Origin: a virus
Lineage: Duplodnaviria; Heunggongvirae; Uroviricota; Caudoviricetes
Strand: one strand, 5' to 3'
DNA length: 64,000 bases
Virus record (IMG/VR): IMGVR_UViG_3300043449_002776
Position numbers and translations under genes: made by a program. The notes below the pieces were generated by a model, which was given only the letters and a program-made list of their open reading frames with translations, was not told the DNA's origin and made no database searches. Positions 6,087 through 50,226 of this stretch are shown here, one piece after another (positions within the stretch are counted from its first letter, which is position 1; each line of letters begins with the position of its first letter).

Positions 6087-7170
6087 AAAACCTAAATCAT
6101 TCAATGTAAGTAACCCAACTTCGAACCAGCATTTAGTTCGACTTTGTACCGAACAATCAATTCGTCTGAGATTAGATGATTCCTTTTTTAGAGATCACCG
6201 TTTACAATTTTCAACTCAAAATCTTTTTATTGAAAATGTTGAAGAACACCCTCAATATGTCATTTATGAGATAGCTCAATCGCCTCAAGTAAAAAAATGG
6301 GCAGATTATTCAAATATATTTCTTGGCGATATTTGGATTGATTGCTCTAAACATTCATCAAAAATGAATGTACTTCTGGATACAAACAATAAAAGCAAAT
6401 TAGGCTTTGTCACAACAATTAATCCAGATTGCACAGAAATTCGTATTGTGCCGGGTGACATTTTAGAATTCATTTTATTTGATGAAAGCTTTGGCATAGA
6501 CGCAAGTTGGAGTTGGCAATATCAGCCTGAATTAAAGTCAGGAGTAGAACTTCTAGGCAGTCAGACTCTTTCTGTAAATCCGTTGACCGAAGATCACCCA
6601 GATTTGCCTTATGCTCGTTGTTTAAGACTTGAGAGTTTTAAAAAATCATTTTGGCAGCAACATTTTTGGTTCCGTTTTGATAAGAGCCTTTTACATTTGA
6701 TTGGCAAAGAAACAGAATCCAAAAAAATTGGAACGCTAAGCTTTTTTGGCTATCCTGAGAAAAAATGGAACTTCACTGCTGAATACCATGTTGCGATTCA
6801 TGTGAAATTCGATTTAGAAAAATCCGCCAAGTATAAAATGAGAGCGTTCAATAGTTTGCTTTTGCCAAAGATAGATTCTAAGCCAATATCTGAAGGGTTT
6901 ATTCTGCCTCCAAATTTTTATAGAACCCCAGTTTATTTCAATTCAAAACATAAAGTCATGGAAGTACAAGCGACTTTATTATCTACCAAATCTCTTGAAG
7001 AAGGCTGCAATACCGAATCTGCAATCACTGATGAAAGCCTTGATGCCGAAAACCACAATGCTTCTTGTCAAAATTATCGCTTTGAACACAAGGCACAAAG
7101 ACACTATGATTGTTCTGATTGGCGAGATGATTTTTCTGATTGGCGGGATAATCCTTCTCATTGGTATTAG
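6079..7170 (+). CDS. hypothetical protein
   Basis: 363-aa ORF, tightly packed with neighbours. Confidence 0.5.
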   Translation: MSKKPKSFNVSNPTSNQHLVRLCTEQSIRLRLDDSFFRDHRLQFSTQNLFIENVEEHPQYVIYEIAQSPQVKKWADYSNIFLGDIWIDCSKHSSKMNVLLDTNNKSKLGFVTTINPDCTEIRIVPGDILEFILFDESFGIDASWSWQYQPELKSGVELLGSQTLSVNPLTEDHPDLPYARCLRLESFKKSFWQQHFWFRFDKSLLHLIGKETESKKIGTLSFFGYPEKKWNFTAEYHVAIHVKFDLEKSAKYKMRAFNSLLLPKIDSKPISEGFILPPNFYRTPVYFNSKHKVMEVQATLLSTKSLEEGCNTESAITDESLDAENHNASCQNYRFEHKAQRHYDCSDWRDDFSDWRDNPSHWY

Positions 7171-7794
7171 ATGATGCAAATTGAATTGCAAAAACCGAAA
7201 ATAATTAAATCCTGTAATGTTGATGCTGTCGTGGGATCTTATGCCTTAGATCGTCAACCGCTTGTATTTGAAAATTGCAGAGAGCGGTTTGCTGTTGCAT
7301 TTCAAGAAGCAACGACAGGATTGTACTTTAAACATCAGGCCGCTAAGGGGATTGATATTGCCAATTTTGTATCAAAAACTGAAATTATTATTAGGCAAGG
7401 CCCTTTAAGTAAATTTTCTATTACAAACAGAGATACTATTTTATGGGTTGAGCCTTCCCAATTTTGGAAGTCTTGTCCGATGAAAAGATCTCTTTTTACC
7501 ATTTTACTTCGTGCTGCAAGTGCGTATAATTCGCAAACAGACAATTACGAGGACGCAATATTCTCCCAACAATATCTAGATCCCACTAAAAAAGCTGTAA
7601 TCAGATTTTTGAATGGGTTTACAAAATATGTTGGGCCAGATTTGAAGATAAGCTCGACAGGCACAGTAATTGTCGATGGTTGGAAAACAGTTTTCCAAAA
7701 CAAAACTGAAACAGAAATAAAGAAAATGTTGGTGTCCCCGAACAAATTCTTTTCTTTTTACGGGGATTGGTTTCCTAGTTCATTATGGATTTAG
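7171..7794 (+). CDS. hypothetical protein
   Basis: 207-aa ORF. Confidence 0.5.
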   Translation: MMQIELQKPKIIKSCNVDAVVGSYALDRQPLVFENCRERFAVAFQEATTGLYFKHQAAKGIDIANFVSKTEIIIRQGPLSKFSITNRDTILWVEPSQFWKSCPMKRSLFTILLRAASAYNSQTDNYEDAIFSQQYLDPTKKAVIRFLNGFTKYVGPDLKISSTGTVIVDGWKTVFQNKTETEIKKMLVSPNKFFSFYGDWFPSSLWI

Positions 7795-8490: not shown

Positions 8491-9003
8491 ATGATCGAAG
8501 TAACAATAACAGATGAAATGTTGGATATTGCGAAGGAGAAAGCCGATAAGCTTGGTCAATTAAAAAATAGCATCACAAGAGGGGAAGGTAATGTAGCAGG
8601 CTTCCTTGGTGAATTGGCTGTTCTTTCAGTCATGGGCGGAGAATTGAAGGGAACAAGAGATTATGATATAGTTTTCGACAATGATGTTAAAGCTGATGTT
8701 AAGACCAAGCGATGTACTTCTCCCCCTCAAGAACATTTCGATTGCTCTATTAGTGATTACAACACGACTCAAAAATGTGATCGCTATATCTTTGTGAGAG
8801 TTCTTAAAGATTATAAGAAAGCTTGGATTTTAGGTTGGTATCCGAAAGAGGAATATTACACTGAAGCAACTTTTATCCAACAAGGTCAACTTGATCGTAG
8901 CAATAATTGGCGAGCAAAATGCGATTGCTGGAATATGCCTATTTCGAATCTTAAGAAAATAGAAGACTTTAAGCCGTCTGGTAACGATACTGAACATTCT
9001 TGA
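8491..9003 (+). CDS. hypothetical protein (possible PD-(D/E)xK-type nuclease fold)
   Basis: 170-aa ORF; D..D-x-K-like pattern DYDIVFDNDVKADVKTK; weak. Confidence 0.4.
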   Translation: MIEVTITDEMLDIAKEKADKLGQLKNSITRGEGNVAGFLGELAVLSVMGGELKGTRDYDIVFDNDVKADVKTKRCTSPPQEHFDCSISDYNTTQKCDRYIFVRVLKDYKKAWILGWYPKEEYYTEATFIQQGQLDRSNNWRAKCDCWNMPISNLKKIEDFKPSGNDTEHS

Positions 9004-9783: not shown

Positions 9784-11865
9784 ATGATCCAAGTTGGAAA
9801 TCGGTCGTTCGAAACTATTGATGATCTTGAAGAACTCGTCGTTCACGCAGCGACGGAGTATGAACTCAACGGTTACGCCGAAGATTTGGACAACGTAGAG
9901 ATCACTGATCCTGAGTATGATCAACTTTATCGTGAACTAAAAAAGTTAAAGCCAACATCTGTTGCCTTCGTAGGCACTAGTCCAAGTAAGGCGGCAGCAA
10001 AAGGCAAGACTGTCAAACATGATCCGCCAATGACTTCTATTGCCAAGGCCGATGGCGACGAGAAAGATTCCATCTATACTCGATGGATTGCCGATTGTGC
10101 TAAGAGAATTGGTGTAAGAACTGAAGAAGTCAAAATCGCTCAATCGTACAAGCATGATGGGGTTGCGATCCGAATCAATTACGTTAAAGGTAAGTTGCAT
10201 TCTGCTGGTTTGAGGCCAAGAGATGGCGTTAACGGATCTGATGTTACTCGTCACATGAAATATATAAAAGGCGTTCCTTTGGAATTGCCTTTGCCGCTTA
10301 CCCTTTCTCTGAATGGCGAAATTGAGTGTTGGGATGGTGATTTTGCGGCTGTGAATGCTGCACGGGATGCCGCAGGTGAAGAACCTTACAAAAACCCGAG
10401 AAACTATACCGCTGGTTGTATGGGTCGGGATGATGCTGAAGAAAACAAAGATGCTCGATTAAGAATTGCTTTTTACTCAATCACTAGTTTTGATGATTGG
10501 GCAAACTATTATTCATCAGAAATAGAGCGTGCCAAATGGGCAAATTCACCAGAAGGATTAAATCTTCAGGATGAAGAAGGTAAGGGTTTCTTTGTGCAAA
10601 TGCGGCCACATGAGTACCGTCATTTGGCCTTGATGGAAACACACTCTAAGAAACTTCCGTACTACACAGATGGGATTGTACTCAAGGTTGATAATCTTGA
10701 GTGGCAAACCGAACTGGGGAATATTGGCGACGATGCTGTCAATTCTCCAAGGGGTGCAATTGCATGGAAGTTTGAGGAAGAAACTGCCGAGGCAGAAGTT
10801 TCAAGCATTGAATGGAACGCCAGTCGGACGGGCCGTGTTGTGCCTACGGCTATTTTTGATACTCCATTTGTGCTTGCTGACACCGAAAATACACGAGCAA
10901 CATGCAATAATTATGGATGGATGGAATCACAAGGTCTTGGTCCCGGTGCAAAGGTTCGGTGTAAAAAAGGCGGCAAAATCATTCCCAATATTATGGAAGT
11001 GATCAAGCCGGTCAAAAACATTGGAGCCCCATCTTCTTGCCCCACATGTTCAGCTAACCTGAACCTTGTGACAAGTAGTAGTGGAAACAAGGATCTAATT
11101 TGTCCTAACCGTGACTGTGGTGCCAAGCATGTTAAGGGTTGGATGTTTTATGTCCAAAAACTGGGCGGAAAAGGTCTTGGCCTATCGGCTATGGAGAAAA
11201 TACTCCAGACCGGTAAAGTGCGAGGCTTGCACGACCTCTACGATTTGACTTACGATGATTTGATGGCTGGTGGTTTCACCGAACGACAGGCCGCTTTGGC
11301 TCTTGCCACAATCTTCATTATTCCCCCAATCAAGGACACTGATAAGTTATTGGAACAGATCGAAGCGTCCCGATCACAGAAATACAAAATTGAAGCGTGG
11401 AAGTTCTTTGCCGCTCTTGGCATACCGGGTGCAGGTGAAACTGCTGGTAAAGCCTTGGTTGCCCACTATAAAGATTTTGATCGCATCTGTGATGCGACTG
11501 AAGACGATTTGCTTGGAATTGCTGGCGTTGGTCCGGCTACTGCAACTGCGATTGTTGATTTTTTTAATCACCACCGTGCAACGGTTGAAAAATTACGTGA
11601 TCATTTTGATCTCGAACTCCCCAAGTCAGGAAAACTGACTGGGAAAAATTTTTGTTTGACCGGAAGTTTCACAGAAGGCAAGAAACATTGGCAATCGTTG
11701 ATTGAGGATCAAGGCGGTAATATTCAATCAAGTGTGGGTAAAACTACTCATTACTTAGTTCAAGAACATGGGAAGAACGACGGCTCGCCAAGTGAAAAGG
11801 AAGTGAAGGCAGGTAAACTGGGTATTCCAGTCATCTCTGTCAAAGATCTTCAAAAATTATTTTGA
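9784..11865 (+). CDS. ligA: NAD-dependent DNA ligase
   Basis: KxDG adenylation motif (SYKHDGVAIRINY), Cys4 zinc finger (CPTCSANL...CPNRDCGAKH), HhH motifs and C-terminal BRCT-like domain. Confidence 0.85.
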   Translation: MIQVGNRSFETIDDLEELVVHAATEYELNGYAEDLDNVEITDPEYDQLYRELKKLKPTSVAFVGTSPSKAAAKGKTVKHDPPMTSIAKADGDEKDSIYTRWIADCAKRIGVRTEEVKIAQSYKHDGVAIRINYVKGKLHSAGLRPRDGVNGSDVTRHMKYIKGVPLELPLPLTLSLNGEIECWDGDFAAVNAARDAAGEEPYKNPRNYTAGCMGRDDAEENKDARLRIAFYSITSFDDWANYYSSEIERAKWANSPEGLNLQDEEGKGFFVQMRPHEYRHLALMETHSKKLPYYTDGIVLKVDNLEWQTELGNIGDDAVNSPRGAIAWKFEEETAEAEVSSIEWNASRTGRVVPTAIFDTPFVLADTENTRATCNNYGWMESQGLGPGAKVRCKKGGKIIPNIMEVIKPVKNIGAPSSCPTCSANLNLVTSSSGNKDLICPNRDCGAKHVKGWMFYVQKLGGKGLGLSAMEKILQTGKVRGLHDLYDLTYDDLMAGGFTERQAALALATIFIIPPIKDTDKLLEQIEASRSQKYKIEAWKFFAALGIPGAGETAGKALVAHYKDFDRICDATEDDLLGIAGVGPATATAIVDFFNHHRATVEKLRDHFDLELPKSGKLTGKNFCLTGSFTEGKKHWQSLIEDQGGNIQSSVGKTTHYLVQEHGKNDGSPSEKEVKAGKLGIPVISVKDLQKLF

Positions 11866-11969
11866 GTATGGGCTTGATTTGCTCTAGAAAATCCCGTAAA
11901 AACCTTACAGTCCACAATTCGGATTTTGTGGACGGGTTTCTGAGTTCCTAAAGCTGCTGTGCAGCAAGG

Positions 11970-12860
11970 ATGGCACTGATGGAGGTCGAGGAGCAGACCA
12001 GTTTAGAGCAAGTTGCGTTTTTGACCCAAAAAGTACAAGGGAGACTGAAGCGAATTTTCAAGGTGCGTGAATTTGACGATCCAGCCAATCGTCAAGTCTT
12101 TCTAGGTGTCATGCCTCAATACGAATCATATCTGGAACAGGTTCGACAGGTTCAATCACAAAGCACAAGATCTGTTGCTGATCATCTTAAGGCTTGCTAT
12201 CAAGAGCCTCTAATGAGTAAAGATCAGGAATATCATCAGTTCCGAAAATACAACTATCACAAATTTTTGGCCCAAAAGTGGCTGGAACTTGACCGTATTT
12301 TCAAGGCTTGTGCGGAATTGAAGCGTGCCGATGAAGTGCGAAAGATGATTACCAACGCAAATGTGCGTTTGTGTATTCCCATCGTAAAGAAGTACCGAAG
12401 TGCTCGGCATCACGAGGATCTTGTTAGTGAAAGTTACTATTTGATCCATCGTGCCGTCGATTACTATGACTATACTCGGAATTTCAAGTTCAGCACTTAT
12501 GCAACGTGGGCCGTCTACAACACGATGGGCAGAACAGCCCAAGACTTGTTCAAGCACGATGCTGTTCATTGTGGTGAAATTGATACGGTTTCTCCCACTT
12601 TAACCACGGGCGAAGCTGAGCAAAAAGAAAAGCATGATGATGACCACTTCAAAGTGCTTGTCAGCAAGCTTTTGAGTTTTGCACATGAACGAGAGCGAGA
12701 TGTGCTTCACCGCAGATTCTTTGTGGGTGAAACCTTGGACGCAATTGGCAAGGACATGGGGGTCACTAAAGAAAGAGTCAGACAAATTGAAATCGCAGGG
12801 ATCGCTCGTCTTGCCAAGAAGGCGGCGGAAATGGGCTTGTCAATCGAAAATGTTTGGTAA
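11970..12860 (+). CDS. RNA polymerase sigma factor, sigma-70 family (RpoD/RpoS-like)
   Basis: Region 2 (YLIHRAVDYYDYTRNFKFSTYATWAVYN) and region 4 (LDAIGKDMGVTKERVRQIEIAGIARL) recognisable. Confidence 0.8.
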   Translation: MALMEVEEQTSLEQVAFLTQKVQGRLKRIFKVREFDDPANRQVFLGVMPQYESYLEQVRQVQSQSTRSVADHLKACYQEPLMSKDQEYHQFRKYNYHKFLAQKWLELDRIFKACAELKRADEVRKMITNANVRLCIPIVKKYRSARHHEDLVSESYYLIHRAVDYYDYTRNFKFSTYATWAVYNTMGRTAQDLFKHDAVHCGEIDTVSPTLTTGEAEQKEKHDDDHFKVLVSKLLSFAHERERDVLHRRFFVGETLDAIGKDMGVTKERVRQIEIAGIARLAKKAAEMGLSIENVW

Positions 12861-13102: not shown

Positions 13103-14689
13103 ATGGCTAACAAGAATATTTTCAAGAATACCGGTGCAAGTGTTCCTGCAACCGATACCACAAACAATGCTGGTGGAAAGGCTTATCGCTTTGATAAGCG
13201 ACACTGCCTCGCACAAATTGCGGCGACAAACTGCTTCAACGGCACCTTCTATGCGAGTGCAGAGGACAATCTGAAGCTGGCTAAGGAAGCCGCTCTTGCT
13301 CTGCGAGACGATCCTGAATTCATCGCTAAGGTGGCGTTGTATGCCCGTGACAAGGCATACATGAAAGACATGCCTGCTTTTCTGACCGTGGTTTTGTCGG
13401 AAATCGACAAGCCGCTGTTCCGTAAGGTCTTCCGCAGGGTTGTAGACAACGGCAAGATGCTCCGTAATGTCATTCAGATGGCACGAAGCGGTGCTGTGAC
13501 TACCAAGAAGGCCAACATGTCGGCGGGAACTTGGCGTCATGCGATTCAGGAATGGTTCGATAGCCGAAACGCTGTTGCACTATTCAAGGCATCCATTGGC
13601 AATGATCCAAGCATGAGAGACATTCTCCGTATGGCTCGACCAAAGCCTAACTCCCCTGAAAAGGAGGCGTTGTTTGGTTATTTCATCGGCAAGGATGTGT
13701 CTGTAGATCGTCTGCCCGAGAACGTGCGTGCGTATGAGCTTTACAAGAAGGATAAGTCTGGACCTGTGCCAGATGTGGACTTCCGTATGCTCGACTCGTT
13801 GGGAATCGGTGATGCTGAATGGTCTCAGATCGCAGGGCGTGCTCCTTGGATGATGACTCGGATGAACCTGAATACGTTTGCTCGTCATAACGTATTCAAG
13901 GATTCAGGTCTTACCAAGGTTATTGCTGATCGTCTCAACAACAAGGAACTGATTGAGAAGGCTCGTGCTTTCCCATACCAGTTGTATGTTGCTTGGCGTG
14001 AGATCTCCAACAATAACGATATTCCGTCGTTGGTGAAGGAAGCGTTGCAGGACGCTATGGAAGCTGCCATTGAGAATGTGCCAGCCCTTCCGGGCGAAGG
14101 CTTCGTTTGCGTGGACATGTCCGGCTCTATGAGTAGTCCGATCACGGGCCATTCTGCTGGTCGCCACAGTTCGTCTGTAACCTGTGTTGAGGTTGCTGGC
14201 TTGATCGCTTCAGCGGTTTACCGTAAGAATCGTTCAGCACAGATTTACACCTTCGACAGTACGGCAACTTTGGTTAATCTCAATCCTAGAGATACTGTTT
14301 TGACGAACACTTCGAAGCTGAGCAAGGCCGGTGGCGGAACAAACATTTCTGCTCCTTTGCATGATCTCAACAGAAAAAATGCCAAGGGCGATTGGGTGTT
14401 CTATGTTTCAGACAATGAATCATGGATCGACTCTGGCTCCAGATACAGTTACTACGGTACTGGTCTGGCAGATGAGTGGAAGAAATTCAAGTCTCGTAAC
14501 CCGAAGGCTCGTTTGATTTGTTGCGACTTGACTCCAAGAAACAACAGTCAAATTAAGTGTCAGCCTGATGTTTTGCAGGTTGGTGGATTCAGCGATCAGG
14601 TTTTTGATGTGATTGCATCCTTCTTGGAGCATGGGCACGAATCTGATCACTGGGTCTCTGAGATTGAGAAAGTTGTCTTGCCAGATTAA
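13103..14689 (+). CDS. TROVE-domain (Ro60-like) protein with C-terminal von Willebrand A domain
   Basis: N-terminal TROVE-like sequence (KAYRFDKRHCLAQIAATNCFNGTFYASAEDN...), vWA MIDAS motif VCVDMSGSMSS. Confidence 0.7.
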   Translation: MANKNIFKNTGASVPATDTTNNAGGKAYRFDKRHCLAQIAATNCFNGTFYASAEDNLKLAKEAALALRDDPEFIAKVALYARDKAYMKDMPAFLTVVLSEIDKPLFRKVFRRVVDNGKMLRNVIQMARSGAVTTKKANMSAGTWRHAIQEWFDSRNAVALFKASIGNDPSMRDILRMARPKPNSPEKEALFGYFIGKDVSVDRLPENVRAYELYKKDKSGPVPDVDFRMLDSLGIGDAEWSQIAGRAPWMMTRMNLNTFARHNVFKDSGLTKVIADRLNNKELIEKARAFPYQLYVAWREISNNNDIPSLVKEALQDAMEAAIENVPALPGEGFVCVDMSGSMSSPITGHSAGRHSSSVTCVEVAGLIASAVYRKNRSAQIYTFDSTATLVNLNPRDTVLTNTSKLSKAGGGTNISAPLHDLNRKNAKGDWVFYVSDNESWIDSGSRYSYYGTGLADEWKKFKSRNPKARLICCDLTPRNNSQIKCQPDVLQVGGFSDQVFDVIASFLEHGHESDHWVSEIEKVVLPD

Positions 14690-19889: not shown

Positions 19890-19985
19890 GCCGAATAGTT
19901 TAAGGGCAAAACACTCGGGAAGGTTATCGAGGCAACTCGGTGGACGCCGGGGGAATTGGAGGTTCGAATCCTTCATTCGGCACTA
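19890..19985 (+). tRNA. tRNA, long (96 nt), isotype undetermined
   Basis: Acceptor GCCGAAT/ATTCGGC, T-arm GGAGG TTCGAAT CCTTC; interior contains extra hairpin CGAG GCAA CTCG. Confidence 0.4.
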
Positions 19986-31541: not shown

Positions 31542-31931
31542 ATGCCAAGAATAAAGTTAATCAAAGTTCATGATGTTAAAACATCTTGTGATTATTGCGA
31601 TCATTATGTCAAAGACATAGTCGTAGATGAAATGTCGCCTTGGCAAGAAGTGACAGAGGAAGAACTTACTTGGCTACGATGCTGGCAAGCTCGTAGGGAG
31701 ATGGCTAAGAAAAATGTAGCGATTGTGATTTTGGAAGAAATTACAAGCGAAGAAACTGTTGATGGCTTCATCAGTGACATCAAAAAATTTGTCAAAGATG
31801 AAGAGATCAAGCAAAAGGAACGTGACAAGAAATATGCAGAAGCCGAAAAGAAAAGGAAGCTTTTGGCTGAGCAAAAGAAAATTGAACGGGCCAAAAAGGT
31901 TCTACAAAAAAGTGGAATTAAAGTTGATTGA
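31542..31931 (+). CDS. hypothetical protein embedded in tRNA array
   Basis: 129-aa ORF, Lys/Glu-rich C-terminus. Confidence 0.5.
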   Translation: MPRIKLIKVHDVKTSCDYCDHYVKDIVVDEMSPWQEVTEEELTWLRCWQARREMAKKNVAIVILEEITSEETVDGFISDIKKFVKDEEIKQKERDKKYAEAEKKRKLLAEQKKIERAKKVLQKSGIKVD

Positions 31932-32011: not shown

Positions 32012-32082
32012 GCTCGATTGGTGAAATGGTATCGCATCTCGTTTACACCGAGAAGTCGAAAGTTCGATTCTTTCATCGAGTA
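32012..32082 (+). tRNA. tRNA-Val (TAC)
   Basis: Acceptor GCTCGAT/ATCGAGT; anticodon stem TCTCG/CGAGA loop TTTACAC. Confidence 0.75.
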
Positions 32083-32120
32083 CTTGCCGAAATGCTAGAA
32101 GGGATTACATCTTTTCCGCC

Positions 32121-32197
32121 AAACTTGGGAAAGTGGTGTAGTTGATGCACACCGTCTGCATAAGACGGAGGGATGGGTTTGACTCCCATAAACTTGT
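32121..32197 (+). tRNA. tRNA-like element (Met CAT-type anticodon arm) without pairing acceptor stem; flanked by AAACTTG direct repeat; preceded by conserved 22-nt motif
   Basis: D-arm GTGT..GCAC, anticodon stem CCGTC/GACGG loop TGCATAA, T-arm ATGGG TTTGACT CCCAT, but 5' GGGAAAG cannot pair with 3' AAACTTG. Confidence 0.3.
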
Positions 32198-32226
32198 TCT
32201 CTTCGCCTTTTGTTCGGCAAATTATG

Positions 32227-32298
32227 GTGTCCATAGTGTAGTGGCTCGCACGTCTGCTTGTGAGGCAGAAAGTACCGGTTCAATCCCGGTTGGACACC
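32227..32298 (+). tRNA. tRNA-His (GTG) with encoded G-1
   Basis: G-1 plus acceptor GTGTCCA/TGGACAC with C73; loop TTGTGAG. Confidence 0.8.
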
Positions 32299-32375
32299 CT
32301 TGAGAGAATGCTAGTTGGGATTACATCTTTTTGGTAGAAAAACATCTCAACAATTTTTTTGTCTCTCATTTTTAT

Positions 32376-32492
32376 GGTGGCTGTGATGTAATGGGCCTCT
32401 TAAGTCAAAGTGCGTAGCTTTGTCGGTAAGTTGGACGGAAAGCATCAGATACTGTGACTATCTGAGTGTAGGTTCGAATCCTACCAGCCTCC
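32376..32492 (+). tRNA. second tRNA-His (GTG)-like gene interrupted by about 45-nt insertion within the D-loop
   Basis: G-1 + acceptor GTGGCTG / CAGCCTC + C73; D-stem ATG...CAT separated by insertion; anticodon stem AGATA/TATCT loop CTGTGAC; T-arm GTAGG TTCGAAT CCTAC. Confidence 0.4.
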
Positions 32493-32588
32493 CTTTAGGA
32501 ATTTTAGTCTCTAGCAGGAATTGAAATGTGTGCTTTTGTTAATAGTCGCACTCGTATATACAGGAAACTGTAAAGGTGTGAGCATTGA

Positions 32589-33203
32589 ATGATAAACATA
32601 TTTCAACATATTCCCAGAACTGGTGGCACAACCTTAATTTCAATCTTTAAGAACTTCTATTCTGAAGAGGAAGTATTTCTGTATTACGGTTATAGGATGA
32701 CTGATCTTTACTATTTGCCCACAAATCCTAAAATGATTTATGGACATCTTCCTTTTGGGATTCATAAAATTCTTGATGATGATTTTTTGTATATTGCCAT
32801 GTTGCGAAATCCTATCGAACGAGTTCAATCACTCTACAGATTTGTGCTTGCAAGAGAAGGTGAAATTAAATTTGATGGTTTTTTACGGTCTTATGACCAA
32901 AATGATGTGGTGAAAGCTTTTGTCTATAAGCCACATACAAAGCAACCTTCAGATTGGTTGGATGAAGCTAAAGAAAACATTGCAAAACATTACTTATTAG
33001 GATTTACAGAGAATTACGATGCTTTTTTGGAAGAACTGTCTTTGAAATTTGGGTGGCCTTCAATTCCTTATGAGCAAAAAAATGCAAGCGATAAAACTTA
33101 CGTTTTTTCAAAAGAGGAAGTTGATGCGATCATTGATAGCAATCATTTGGACATGCAGTTATACAGTTGGGCAAGACAAAAATTCTTGAATAAGAATTTG
33201 TAA
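32589..33203 (+). CDS. carbohydrate sulfotransferase-like protein
   Basis: 5'-PSB-like IPRTGGTT and 3'-PB-like LRNPIERVQSLY motifs. Confidence 0.55.
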   Translation: MINIFQHIPRTGGTTLISIFKNFYSEEEVFLYYGYRMTDLYYLPTNPKMIYGHLPFGIHKILDDDFLYIAMLRNPIERVQSLYRFVLAREGEIKFDGFLRSYDQNDVVKAFVYKPHTKQPSDWLDEAKENIAKHYLLGFTENYDAFLEELSLKFGWPSIPYEQKNASDKTYVFSKEEVDAIIDSNHLDMQLYSWARQKFLNKNL

Positions 33204-33291: not shown

Positions 33292-33295
33292 CTTT

Positions 33296-33379
33296 GCATT
33301 AGATGTGACCGTAATGAGCAATGGTAGCGAGTCCCGTAAGGGTAGGTACATGTGGGTTCGAGTCCCATCATCTAATGCA
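33296..33379 (+). tRNA. tRNA-like gene (84 nt), isotype undetermined; unusual 10-bp terminal helix
   Basis: GCATTAGATG pairs perfectly with CATCTAATGC; T-arm GTGGG TTCGAGT CCCAT; internal CCC GTAA GGG hairpin; no clear anticodon arm by eye. Confidence 0.35.
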
Positions 33380-33856: not shown

Positions 33857-33954
33857 TTCTTTTTATGTCTTATTCAAAAGTAAAAAATTGGCGACAAAAT
33901 ACAAAAAACTTTTAGTTGAATCTTTAGGCGGAAAATGCAATAGATAAGGATTAC

Positions 33955-34001
33955 ATCTTTTCATCAAAGAGAGGCCGTGGGTTCGAATCCCACCCCCACA
34001 A
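33955..34001 (+). tRNA. 5'-truncated tRNA-Met(CAT)-type 3' portion (pseudogene or split gene) immediately after conserved motif
   Basis: ATCTT TTCATCA AAGAG + V + GTGGG TTCGAAT CCCAC + CCCCACA; no matching 5' acceptor strand within 100 nt upstream. Confidence 0.3.
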
Positions 34002-34058
34002 CTCAGTAAATTTGATATAGTGTTCGAATTCCAGTAAGATAAGTTGAGGAGCAAAGAC

Positions 34059-34436: not shown

Positions 34437-34541
34437 GCGGAAGATGCTCATGGGAGCTTTTCTCTTTCACTTTTTGTTTCTTAAGCACTTAAGAAAATGC
34501 AGATTGGGATTACATCGTTGGTTCGATTCCAATCTTCCGCT
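34437..34541 (+). tRNA. tRNA-like gene with about 60-nt insertion containing the conserved motif in place of the anticodon arm
   Basis: Acceptor GCGGAAG ... CTTCCGC pair perfectly; D-stem GCTC/GAGC; T-arm GTTGG TTCGATT CCAAT directly follows GGGATTACATC. Confidence 0.35.
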
Positions 34542-34658: not shown

Positions 34659-34738
34659 GCTAGTGTGGCTCAGTGGCGACAGCACCGCTCTTGTAAAGCG
34701 GAATACAAACACCGTGGGTTCGAGTCCCACCACTAGCT
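34659..34738 (+). tRNA. tRNA-Thr (TGT), 80 nt with extended variable region
   Basis: Perfect acceptor GCTAGTG/CACTAGC; anticodon CCGCT CTTGTAA AGCGG; 12-nt variable region. Confidence 0.65.
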
Positions 34739-34745
34739 CTTTTAT

Positions 34746-34976: not shown

Positions 34977-35107
34977 TTCGACGTAGCTCAGTGGTAGAGC
35001 ACCTAAAAATAGTCTTTTCACTACTTGTCTGCGAATTAGCAGAATGATAGAAAGGATTACATCGCATTCGGAGCGGGTGGTCGTTGGTTCGAATCCAACC
35101 GTCGATA
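34977..35107 (+). tRNA. tRNA-Arg (TCG) interrupted by a conserved 59-nt insertion between position 26 and the anticodon stem
   Basis: 5' part TTCGACG TA GCTC AGTGGTA GAGC A; insertion 35002-35060 ending in GAATGATAGAAAGGATTAC; 3' part ATCGC ATTCGGA GCGGG + V + GTTGG TTCGAAT CCAAC + CGTCGAT; removing insertion gives a 72-nt cloverleaf. Confidence 0.45.
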
Positions 35108-35153: not shown

Positions 35154-35283
35154 CTCGGCGTAGCTTAATGGCTAAAGCACTAAAAATAGTCTTTTCAATC
35201 TTTGTCTGCGAATTTGCAGAATGTCAGAAAGGATTACATCACCTGTTAAGTGAGGGATGTTGGTTCGAATCCAGCCGCCGAGG
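35154..35283 (+). tRNA. tRNA-Asn (GTT) interrupted by the same conserved 58-nt insertion at position 26/27
   Basis: Perfect 7-bp acceptor CTCGGCG/CGCCGAG; insertion 35180-35237 about 90% identical to that in 34977-35107; anticodon arm ATCAC CTGTTAA GTGAG follows motif. Confidence 0.45.
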
Positions 35284-35461: not shown

Positions 35462-35548
35462 TCTAGGGTAGCCGAGTTGGTAGCAGGCACCTGACTGTTA
35501 ATCAGGAGTGGTTTATCCCCGTCGCAAGTTCGAGTCTTGCCCCTAGAG
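35462..35548 (+). tRNA. tRNA with GTT anticodon and unusually long (17-nt) variable region
   Basis: Acceptor TCTAGGG/CCCTAGA, class-II-like D-arm GCC...GGC, anticodon CCTGA CTGTTAA TCAGG, T-arm GCAAG TTCGAGT CTTGC. Confidence 0.45.
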
Positions 35549-35583
35549 CTAAATTTTGATTATTCATATCATTACATATTGGT

Positions 35584-38058: not shown

Positions 38059-38143
38059 GACGGTGTGGCCGAGTGGCTGAAGGCAACAGATTGCAAATCT
38101 GTCGAGTAAATACTCCTCGTGGGTTCGAATCCCACTGCCGTCT
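38059..38143 (+). tRNA. class-II (long variable arm, Ser/Tyr-like body) tRNA with anticodon GCA (Cys by anticodon)
   Basis: Acceptor GACGGTG/TGCCGTC; D-arm GCC GAGTGGCTGAA GGC; anticodon ACAGA TTGCAAA TCTGT; 16-nt variable hairpin CGAG...CTCG; T-arm GTGGG TTCGAAT CCCAC. Confidence 0.5.
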
Positions 38144-43951: not shown

Positions 43952-44040
43952 GGGAGTGAAGCTCATGGTAGAGCGTGGCGGCTTATAACCGTTAGGATCA
44001 GATGAATCTCAAGGTTAGGGTTCGAATCCCTACACTCCTA
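43952..44040 (+). tRNA. tRNA with anticodon TAT (Ile AUA-reading) and 22-nt variable region
   Basis: Acceptor GGGAGTG/CACTCCT; D GCTC ATGGTA GAGC; anticodon GGCGG CTTATAA CCGTT (two G-U); T-arm TAGGG TTCGAAT CCCTA. Confidence 0.45.
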
Positions 44041-44086
44041 CTTTTTTTGAAAAAGCGGGAATTAAAGCACTATAATAGTGTTGATT

Positions 44087-45766: not shown

Positions 45767-45778
45767 GGAGTGTGTGAA

Positions 45779-46174
45779 ATGAAGACTAAGCAAGTAATTG
45801 TCATGAGGTACAAATACCCTGATGGCAAAGGGGGAACTGTTGGCCTTCGGACAGGCAAATATATTGCCCAAGCATGTCATGCCTCAATGGCATTTCTGTC
45901 TCGTCGAGTATTCGAGACACAAGGCACTCCAATCTTTAGTGATGCTGAAATTAATTGGTTCCAGAACAGTTATGCCAAAGTTTGTTGCCGGGTAGATACT
46001 GAAGAAGAGCTATTAGATATTTACGAAAAAGCGAAGGCTGCTGGTTTAGAAGTTCATTTAATTACCGATAGTGGCAAAACGGAATTCAAAGAGCCAACCA
46101 AAACTTGTCTTGCTATTGGTCCTGATTTGGCCGAAAAGATAGATCCAATAACTGGTCATTTAAAACTACTGTAA
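45779..46174 (+). CDS. peptidyl-tRNA hydrolase, PTH2 family
   Basis: GKYIAQACHAS resembles PTH2 GKIAAQCSHA active-site region; AAGGAG RBS. Confidence 0.6.
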   Translation: MKTKQVIVMRYKYPDGKGGTVGLRTGKYIAQACHASMAFLSRRVFETQGTPIFSDAEINWFQNSYAKVCCRVDTEEELLDIYEKAKAAGLEVHLITDSGKTEFKEPTKTCLAIGPDLAEKIDPITGHLKLL

Positions 46175-49956: not shown

Positions 49957-50226
49957 GGGTCATTAGCTCAATGGTTAGAGCAACGGACTTCAATAGGAGT
50001 GCTTAGAGGGAAACCTCTAATGTAGAACCTCTCAAATTCGGTGAACGCTTAACTGCCAATACCGAGCCAAGCCTGTTGATCAGGAAGGTGTAGAGACTTG
50101 ACGGGAGGCACCTAAAACCACAAGGTTATGGTGAAGGTAAAGTCCAGACCACAAACTGCAAGGGTAACGAAAGTTATAGTGGTAAAGTTAATCCGTAGGT
50201 TGTAGGTTCGAGTCCTACATGGCCCA
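49957..50226 (+). tRNA. tRNA (probably Lys, TTT) interrupted by about 197-nt group-I-like intron (49991-50187) in the anticodon loop
   Basis: 5' exon GGGTCAT TA GCTC AATGGTTA GAGC A ACGGA CTT; 3' exon TTAA TCCGT AGGTT GTAGG TTCGAGT CCTAC ATGGCCC; exon ends in T and intron ends in G as for group I; intron has R/S-like elements GTAGAGACTTGA and AAGTTATAGTGG. Confidence 0.5.

Follow-up and report, generated by a model that had tools for sequence, protein, structure and literature searches.

A tRNA-His-type gene with a conserved 42-nt hairpin in its D-loop in the tRNA array of a large tailed-phage-like genome

The stretch of DNA analysed here, which we call the window, is a 64-kb part of a phage genome of at least 120 kb (IMG/VR record IMGVR_UViG_3300043449_002776). 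With its sigma factors, NAD-dependent DNA ligase, PTH2 protein and metallophosphoesterase-like open reading frame (ORF) it resembles part of a large tailed phage, and it carries more than 27 tRNAs on the + strand. Between positions 32376 and 32492 of the + strand it encodes an RNA which, as judged from the sequence, has the shape of a tRNA-His(GUG) with a 42-nucleotide (nt) hairpin in the D-loop. We refer to this interrupted tRNA-His-type gene as His-2, and to its uninterrupted neighbour as His-1. The same 118-nt element was found at the same place in two further phage lineages, L136/L146 and L148. L136 and L146 are identical across the element, and the alignment used in this work consists of the window, L136 and L148 copies, each 118 nt long. 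The parts of His-2, with the evidence on which each assignment is based, are as follows.

32376, + strand: G-1, the extra 5' guanosine opposite C73; read from the sequence, G:C in all three lineages.
32377-32383, + strand: 5' strand of the acceptor stem, GUGGCUG, positions 1-7; its partner is 32485-32491.
32384-32385, + strand: U8 and G9; sequence, invariant.
32386-32389, + strand: 5' strand of the D stem, AUGU, positions 10-13; partner GCAU at 32442-32445, invariant, predicted by RNAalifold.
32390-32394, + strand: 5' part of the D-loop, AAUGG (A14, A15, U16, G18, G19); sequence, invariant.
32395-32436, + strand: irregular 42-nt hairpin between G19 and A21; constrained and free folds, RNAalifold consensus.
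32437-32441, + strand: 3' part of the D-loop, GGAAA, A21 being the last; sequence, GGUCA in L148 with A21 retained.
32442-32446, + strand: 3' strand of the D stem, GCAU, positions 22-25, plus C26; RNAalifold and pair counts, invariant.
32447-32463, + strand: anticodon arm, AGAUA-CUGUGAC-UAUCU, with U33 and A37; sequence and partial Rfam alignment, invariant in the three lineages.
32464-32467, + strand: variable loop, GAGU; Rfam alignment, invariant.
32468-32484, + strand: T arm, GUAGG-UUCGAAU-CCUAC; Rfam alignment, invariant.
32485-32492, + strand: 3' strand of the acceptor stem, CAGCCUC (positions 66-72), and discriminator C73 (32492); sequence, pair counts and RNAalifold.

The G-1:C73 pair is an identity element of bacterial tRNA-His, and the anticodon GUG (32454-32456) lies in the 7-nt loop CUGUGAC (32452-32458), with U33 and a purine at position 37. 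CCA is not encoded at the 3' end, where C73 is followed by CUU. An earlier note, made from the letters of the DNA alone, had described a second gene of the tRNA-His(GUG) type in which G-1 pairs with C73, the anticodon and T arms are canonical and the D-loop has an insertion of about 45 nt, and our analysis agrees with this description, the insert measuring 42 nt. Two details had to be amended. The acceptor strands GTGGCTG and CAGCCTC pair in the proposed position, but in the window copy they form only six of the seven pairs, U2.U71 being mismatched; the D stem, which had been read as ATG...CAT, is present but has 4 base pairs (bp; AUGU/GCAU) instead of 3 bp.

An ordinary D-loop is about 7-11 nt long, whereas the strands of the His-2 D stem are separated by 52 nt; without the insert an ordinary D-loop, AAUGG..GGAAA, is left. 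In the standard numbering the hairpin takes the place of positions 20/20a/20b, the order being A14 A15 U16 G18 G19 (hairpin) G G A A A21. These positions form the variable pocket, a solvent-exposed part of the D-loop, variable in length, beside the G19:C56 pair of the elbow. The bases which make tertiary contacts (U8, A14, A15, G18, G19, A21, U48 and the T-loop) are kept in His-2, and, going by the standard tRNA numbering, A15 can form a Levitt pair with U48 in the variable loop. From established tRNA structure we infer that the insertion site is the D-loop position where an added helix would least disturb the L-shape.

When the three lineages were folded together without guidance, the RNAalifold consensus was a cloverleaf with the D-loop hairpin (36 pairs), in support of the acceptor stem, D stem and anticodon arm proposed in the earlier note. 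Standard pairs occupy 95.4% of the alignment cells; a shift of the 3' partners by 1-3 columns lowers this value to 29-46%. Double compensatory changes were seen at five pairs, three of them in the acceptor stem (4:69, G-C/A-U; 6:67, U-A/C-G; 7:66, G-C/A-U) and two in the distal stem of the insert, and in a shuffle control the observed covariation score was reached by 2 of 500 shuffles. Pair 2:71 is U.U in the window, U.G in L136 and U-A in L148. Between the window and L136 half of the acceptor stem has changed (7 of 14 positions), and all seven changes keep or improve pairing. The unconstrained minimum free energy (MFE) structure of the L136 copy is exactly the proposed fold.

The tRNA body (60 nt, comprising D stem, anticodon arm, variable loop and T arm) has no substitution across the window, L136 and L148. 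For comparison, 12 of the 29 fourfold degenerate sites of the neighbouring gene, along which the divergence is mosaic, differ between the window and L136. The insert is exactly 42 nt long in all three lineages despite its sequence turnover, about 12 of the 25 distal positions being different in L148. Its proximal helix (GCC.CUUA / UAAG.UUGG.A.C) is invariant and its loop retains U..GUA, while the distal stem CAAAG..CUUUG is swapped in L148 for CUGAG..CUCAG, which is of equal length and still paired. These sequence comparisons indicate that both the tRNA fold and a hairpin of constant size are selected for, and the invariant body, the compensated pairs and the constant length of a hairpin whose sequence has turned over argue that His-2 is under selection and is not a pseudogene.

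His-2 is easily overlooked. ARAGORN called 27 tRNAs in the window and His-2 was not among them; native His-2 had no match in Rfam at the gathering score, and in E-value mode only a partial tRNA match was obtained (32429-32484, 19.1 bits, E 0.25). When the 42 nt were deleted in silico, ARAGORN called a 75-nt tRNA-His(GUG) with G-1 directly 5' to it, both in the window copy and in L136. Interrupted genes of this kind escape routine tRNA finders.

The relatives were found through the 129-amino-acid ORF upstream of His-2 (31542-31931), which has a graded series of homologs; contigs of these homologs yielded L136 and L148, in which the protein is 85% and 71% identical to that of the window, respectively. 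All three share the local order tRNA-Trp, tRNA-Val, YrlA-like RNA, His-1, YrlB-like hairpin, His-2. Relatives in which the neighbour protein is 64-68% identical (L129-L131, L140-L142) have a single, uninterrupted tRNA-His only; the insertion is therefore specific to one sub-lineage and older than the split of the three variants. His-2 is 65-70% identical to the single His gene of these distant relatives, much like in other comparisons, a value that does not mark the two as clear orthologs. The window phage itself was found, 100% identical, in three Logan runs. A BLAST search of GenBank phages left the element unmatched, and the 10-kb region around it gave scattered tRNA-Arg matches but no close relative. 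Exact or gapped DNA patterns derived from His-2 had no match in IMG/VR or in GTDB genomes; in JGI metagenomes they found L146, which is of the L136 type, and one chance match within a coding region. A protein-profile scan of IMG/VR returned only a distant phage of the L132 type, and a scan of IMG/VR with the array motif described below mostly single, chance-like matches. Homologs of the sulfotransferase-like gene downstream of His-2 were either in non-syntenic settings or 100% identical copies of the same phage. A covariance model of His-2 detected no more tRNAs with a D-loop hairpin across 227 kb of related loci, and our literature searches found no report of phage tRNAs with D-loop hairpins or of chimeras of Y RNA and tRNA. 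No second copy of the 42-nt insert was found in the window or in the relatives, which rules out its origin as a repeat or mobile element.

Two features of the immediate neighbourhood, and the sites of a module related to one of them, are needed for the interpretation of His-2.

32226-32298, + strand: His-1, an uninterrupted tRNA-His(GUG) with G-1 at 32226; ARAGORN, Rfam 57.9 bits.
32296-32373, + strand: YrlB-like Y-RNA hairpin carrying GAGAAUGCUAGUUGGGAUUACAUC; Rfam RF02565, 39.1 bits, E 1.3e-6, which is below the gathering score of 97.
19832, 20001, 32102, 32318, 33948, 34507, 35054, 35231, 35296 and 38619, + strand: sites of the YrlB-like module.

His-1 is intact and lies 77 nt upstream of His-2 (150 nt from start to start), in agreement with the earlier note. 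The further suggestion that His-2 is a duplicated, interrupted copy did not hold up: without the insert the two His genes share only 57-63% identity, too little for recent duplicates. With its invariant body and compensated acceptor changes, His-2 is also better conserved than His-1. His-1 is hypervariable (window 32226-32298, L136 1008-1080, L148 774-846); the difference between the window and L136 is about 27%, with compensated stems, in a block that is otherwise about 97% identical, and the acceptor stem of His-2 is likewise hypervariable. The 3' end of the YrlB-like hairpin is 2 nt before G-1 of His-2, and this adjacency is kept in L136 and L148. Between tRNA-Val and His-1 lies a YrlA-like RNA (32084-32225, + strand) with an outer stem, GCCGAA..UUCGGC, in which a C-G pair is replaced by a compensated U-A pair in L136. 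It contains a Y-like module and an internal tRNA-like part consisting of a D arm, a CAU anticodon-like arm and a T arm, and its L148 ortholog was called by ARAGORN as a 93-nt tRNA-Met.

The window encodes an ortholog of Ro60/Rsr (13103-14689, + strand), recognised by the Pfam domains TROVE and vWA_Ro60 and by its match to the solved structures 9KOP, 2NVO and 1YVP. The nearest Ro60 of a cultured phage, 41% identical at the amino acid level, is that of Myxococcus phage Mx1, whose tRNA array is normal and in which the array motif was not found. Bacterial and phage Y RNAs are known partners of Ro60, and some of them mimic tRNA (PMC4201824, PMC12135203). The array motif GAAUG-N5-9-GG(A/U)UUACAUC (GAAUG-N-GGAUUACAUC), which matches the core of the Rfam family YrlB, has 19 matches in the window at no more than one mismatch, against 3.4 expected; the exact matches, nine in number, are all on the + strand. 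The modules lie both between and inside tRNAs, and they occur also in L129, L131 and L146, being conserved where the neighbour protein is 65-67% identical. In tRNA-Arg(UCG) (34979-35106) and tRNA-Asn(GUU) (35154-35283), both on the + strand, an insert of about 60 nt with a Y-like module interrupts the 5' strand of the anticodon stem at positions 27/28-29. Inserts of this type fold as a helix, UAGUCUUUUC/GAAAGGAUUA, with an inner hairpin. Arg(UCG) is present in the window in the interrupted form only. ARAGORN misses interrupted tRNAs of the Arg/Asn type, some of which are caught by Rfam. L146 has four such genes (8722-8851, 11522-11653, about 11700-11829 and 11872-11999), their types including Arg(UCU) and a CAU tRNA.

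The reading we favour, and to which we give an even chance, is that His-2 is a selectively maintained tRNA-His-type gene, predicted to be functional, in whose mature RNA the hairpin persists as an additional elbow arm. His-2 would be co-transcribed with the same-strand array of tRNAs and Y-RNA-like hairpins and released by RNase P at G-1; because the YrlB-like hairpin directly precedes His-2, the same cut would also form the 3' end of the YrlB-like RNA. The transcript would then fold as a normal tRNA body, with an 8-bp His-type acceptor end, D stem, GUG anticodon arm and T arm, and the 42-nt hairpin would stay in the mature RNA, projecting from the elbow between G19 and A21. There a protein or RNA partner might use it as a handle, or it might modify recognition of the elbow; the resulting molecule would be either a specialised form of tRNA-His or a mimic of it. 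Retention of the arm seems the most likely outcome because the insert has a fixed length and a structured distal stem, because its site is permissive, and because no removal signal can be recognised. The context, a phage that encodes Ro60 and has YrlB-like modules inside other tRNAs of the array, also favours tRNA bodies with extra modules.

Several points speak against this reading. With an intact tRNA-His just upstream, decoding would not need His-2. The covariation counts are small, as they come from only three distinct sequences. In the window copy the proposed fold is 1 kcal/mol above the MFE, the single-sequence MFE structure being a misfold, and the acceptor stem of this copy has the U2.U71 mismatch. 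A bulky hairpin at this site, next to the pair G19:C56, might collide with RNase P or with the L1 stalk or L5 of the ribosome, which would argue for its removal from an RNA meant for decoding. Among about 50 window ORFs scanned with Pfam there was neither a splicing endonuclease nor an RNA ligase; as the window covers 64 kb and the genome has at least 120 kb, the absence of such enzymes is not established.

An alternative regards the 42 nt as an intervening sequence. The base of the hairpin would be cut by an endonuclease of the phage or the host, after which an RNA ligase would join the two halves into a normal tRNA-His of about 75-76 nt for use in translation. We regard such protein-dependent splicing at a non-canonical D-loop position, by enzymes which do not belong to a recognised route, as possible but doubtful. 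The perfect tRNA-His obtained by precise removal of the insert in silico (ARAGORN) counts in favour of this alternative, and an invariant proximal helix with small bulges, together with a freely varying distal stem, is the pattern expected of splice-site recognition; on the other hand, an intron needs neither strict length conservation nor a structured distal stem. Related phages carry RNA ligases (PF09414) and metallophosphoesterases within their tRNA arrays and the window has a metallophosphoesterase-like ORF, yet neither an EndA-like endonuclease nor an RNA ligase was among the window ORFs scanned. A hairpin at the elbow would probably interfere with the ribosome, and other tRNAs of the array, including the only Arg-UCG of the window, hold anticodon-stem inserts which would have to be removed for decoding. 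Still, no known machinery fits. The insert had no match to intron or ribozyme families in an Rfam E-value scan of 32080-32600, and a group I or group II intron was ruled out because there was no match to a catalytic core and because 42 nt is too small for self-splicing, far below the size of these introns. An intron of the bulge-helix-bulge (BHB) type was also ruled out, since in the consensus structure the 4-bp helix CUUA/UAAG is flanked on both sides by 1x2 internal loops (U/UU, A/GG) and not by BHB bulges. A survey of the tRNA genes of 4,934 bacterial genomes found group I introns, rarely group II introns, and nothing else (PMC13011429). In a broader form of the same idea, which we consider unlikely, His-2 and the Arg, Asn and Met-type tRNAs with Y modules would all be substrates of a new protein-dependent phage tRNA splicing pathway, neither of the group I/II nor of the BHB kind, which excises structured inserts at non-canonical positions and perhaps releases Y-like RNAs as ligands of Ro60.

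The remaining explanations seem to us much less probable. The 42-nt insert could be a degenerate Y-RNA-like module (GAAUG..GGAUUACAUC) of the sort found in the Arg and Asn tRNAs, which would make His-2 one more Ro60-binding chimera of tRNA and Y RNA. The phage does encode Ro60, the motif is strongly enriched on the array's + strand (19 matches where 3.4 are expected), the module is located within Arg(UCG) and Asn(GUU), and in all three lineages a YrlB-like hairpin precedes His-2 at a distance of 2 nt. The insert itself does not bear this out: a profile hidden Markov model of 22 module copies, run in nhmmer with filters off and at E<=1000, had no match in His-2, and the insert lacks the Ro-associated CGAA-type motif (PMC4201824). 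The 3' end of the insert, GGAAAGCAUC, which the earlier note took for a degenerate form of the array motif, reads GGUCAGCAUC in L148 and overlaps the D stem (GCAU is its 3' strand), and the insertion sites differ, being in the D-loop of His-2 and in the 5' strand of the anticodon stem (27/28-29) in Arg/Asn. We find this explanation very improbable. About as improbable is a pseudogene: the insertion would have disabled a tRNA-His and would have been tolerated owing to the intact upstream copy, and the disabled copy would now be drifting. Such a view could appeal to the redundant tRNA-His, to the failure of standard tRNA finders on the native sequence, to the acceptor U.U mismatch of the window copy and to the sequence divergence of the hairpin, which is close to that of the local silent sites (7 of 42 positions, compared with about 15-40%). 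It does not account for a 60-nt body without substitution in three lineages whose neighbour protein differs by 15-29%, for seven acceptor substitutions between the window and L136 all of which keep or improve pairing, for the preservation of hairpin length and pairing despite heavy sequence turnover, or for the repair of the 2:71 mismatch in both other lineages. Finally, the true gene could be shorter and start inside the insert, the upstream GGUGGCUG..AAUGGG being a mere leader. ARAGORN did call a 74-nt tRNA-His of this kind at L136 1203-1276 and L146 6730-6803, and the partial Rfam match of the window starts at 32429 with a D-arm-like GUUG/AAGC. But in the inner tRNA the acceptor stem would consist of wobble pairs and a mismatch, and the T and D stems would have 4 bp and 3 bp. 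ARAGORN makes no such call in the window or in L148, in the proper register no more than 3 of the 7 positions of the inner 5' strand are paired in the window copy, and it is the outer acceptor stem that has the three double compensatory changes. This last explanation is hardly credible.

Besides His-2 and the interrupted Arg and Asn genes, we noticed a number of unusual tRNA-like genes in the window and its relatives, given here as observations in their own right. At 34438-34541 (+ strand) there is a tRNA-like RNA with an acceptor stem (GCGGAAG/CUUCCGC), a D arm (GCUC-AUGG-GAGC) and a T arm (GUUGG-UUCGAUU-CCAAU), in which a Y-like module stands in place of the entire anticodon arm. At approximately 33930-34003 (+ strand) a Y-like module precedes a CAU anticodon arm, a T arm and the acceptor 3' strand CCCCACA, and there is no 5' half in the vicinity; the complete interrupted counterpart is L146 8722-8851, and the locus could be a truncated or split copy. 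Another tRNA-like RNA (window 33295-33378, + strand; L136 about 1771-1853; L148 about 1335-1416) has a 10-bp acceptor-type stem, GCAUUAGAUG/CAUCUAAUGC, which is fully compensated in L136 (GCACUUCGUG/CACGAAGUGC), and was called by no tRNA finder. In L136, 1560-1680 is a tRNA-like gene with about 42 nt instead of a normal anticodon loop, where the window has the sulfotransferase-like ORF (32589-33203). The tRNA gene at 49958-50226 (+ strand), with the acceptor stem GGGUCAU/AUGGCCC, has a group I intron in the anticodon loop (Rfam Intron_gpI, 49981-50162, 50.6 bits), and another T-arm-like sequence lies at about 51013. Five tRNAs of the + strand (34659-34739, 35462-35549, 38059-38143, 43952-44041 and 19890-19983) have long variable regions and a total length of 80-94 nt; the calls are Thr, Asn, Cys, Ile-UAU and one with the 4-base anticodon 'aggt', and long variable regions are atypical for these amino acids. 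Elsewhere in the window there is a ubiquitin-like conjugation cluster (20896-24713, + strand; weak matches to Prok-E2_D, Prok-JAB and ThiF), and a peptidyl-tRNA hydrolase of the PTH2 type is encoded at 45770-46174 (+ strand).

The distant relative L132 has, just 3' of a DUF2828/DUF7788 gene, two tRNA-like genes (7052-7154 and 7157-7265) with a different insert, ..AAAACGAGAU-loop-AUCUCUAACAGCAU.., which replaces the anticodon arm in one gene and interrupts the anticodon stem of Arg(UCU) in the other. As these inserts are analogous to those of the window, tRNA bodies with inserted modules recur in this group of large phages.

Self-splicing introns, almost always in the anticodon loop, are to our knowledge the only interruptions known from the tRNA genes of bacteria and phages. 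A conserved, covarying D-loop hairpin in a phage tRNA-His fits neither this rule nor the BHB rule of archaea and eukaryotes. A retained arm would make His-2 a natural tRNA with an additional elbow arm and thereby a new tRNA architecture. It would bear on the tolerance of RNase P, HisRS, EF-Tu and the ribosome, on counter-defence by phages against nucleases that target tRNA and on the engineering of tRNA scaffolds. If the arm is removed, His-2 points to an unknown splicing activity in the bacterial world. A phage with Ro60 and many Y-RNA-like modules fused to tRNA bodies is a promising system for studying the origin of tRNA-mimicking Y RNAs.

It is instructive to compare His-2 with the systems it resembles, none of which (bacterial tRNA-His, BHB introns, bacterial introns, YrlA-type mimics and class II tRNAs) fits it fully. 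With bacterial tRNA-His it shares the 8-bp acceptor end with G-1:C73, the anticodon loop CUGUGAC, the T loop UUCGAAU, and U8, A14, G18G19 and A21; it departs from it in having a D-loop of 52 nt as opposed to 7-11 nt, in the lack of an encoded CCA, and in that standard finders do not call the native sequence. A BHB motif consists of two 3-nt bulges on opposite strands with a 4-bp helix between them, located at the exon-intron junctions. Non-canonical tRNA introns dependent on this motif, some of them in the D-loop, are known from Archaea, Cyanidioschyzon merolae and nucleomorphs (PMC4090602, PMC3728597). Like these, the insert of His-2 is a short, non-coding, hairpin-forming sequence in the D-loop whose exact removal, in silico, restores a standard tRNA. 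Unlike them, His-2 has no BHB motif, no splicing endonuclease was found in the window, and its setting, with sigma-70-type factors, an NAD-dependent ligase and a bacterial-type tRNA-His, is a tailed-phage-like genome and not that of an archaeon or eukaryote.

The tRNA introns of bacteria and phages are group I introns in the anticodon loop and, rarely, group II introns, one of which was reported in the D-loop (PMC13011429). His-2 is similar in being an interrupted tRNA gene, and the same window holds the group I intron-containing tRNA gene at 49958-50226, but the 42-nt insert is far under self-splicing size and has no intron match in Rfam. The resemblance to the YrlA and YrlB Y RNAs (PMC4201824) lies in the tRNA-like character of His-2, in the Ro60 encoded by the same genome and in the adjoining YrlB-like hairpin; like YrlA, His-2 would be a substrate of tRNA-processing enzymes. 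However, whereas YrlA lacks an anticodon arm and has both its ends in the Ro-binding stem, the GUG anticodon arm of His-2 is complete and its ends are those of a natural tRNA, and His-2 contains no motif of the Ro-binding type, the Ro-type module being in the separate hairpin upstream. Class II tRNAs (Leu, Ser, Tyr), which retain a long variable arm in the mature molecule, are similar to His-2 in having an extra stem-loop off the core; the arm of His-2 emerges from the variable pocket of the D-loop and, with its 42 nt, is much longer.

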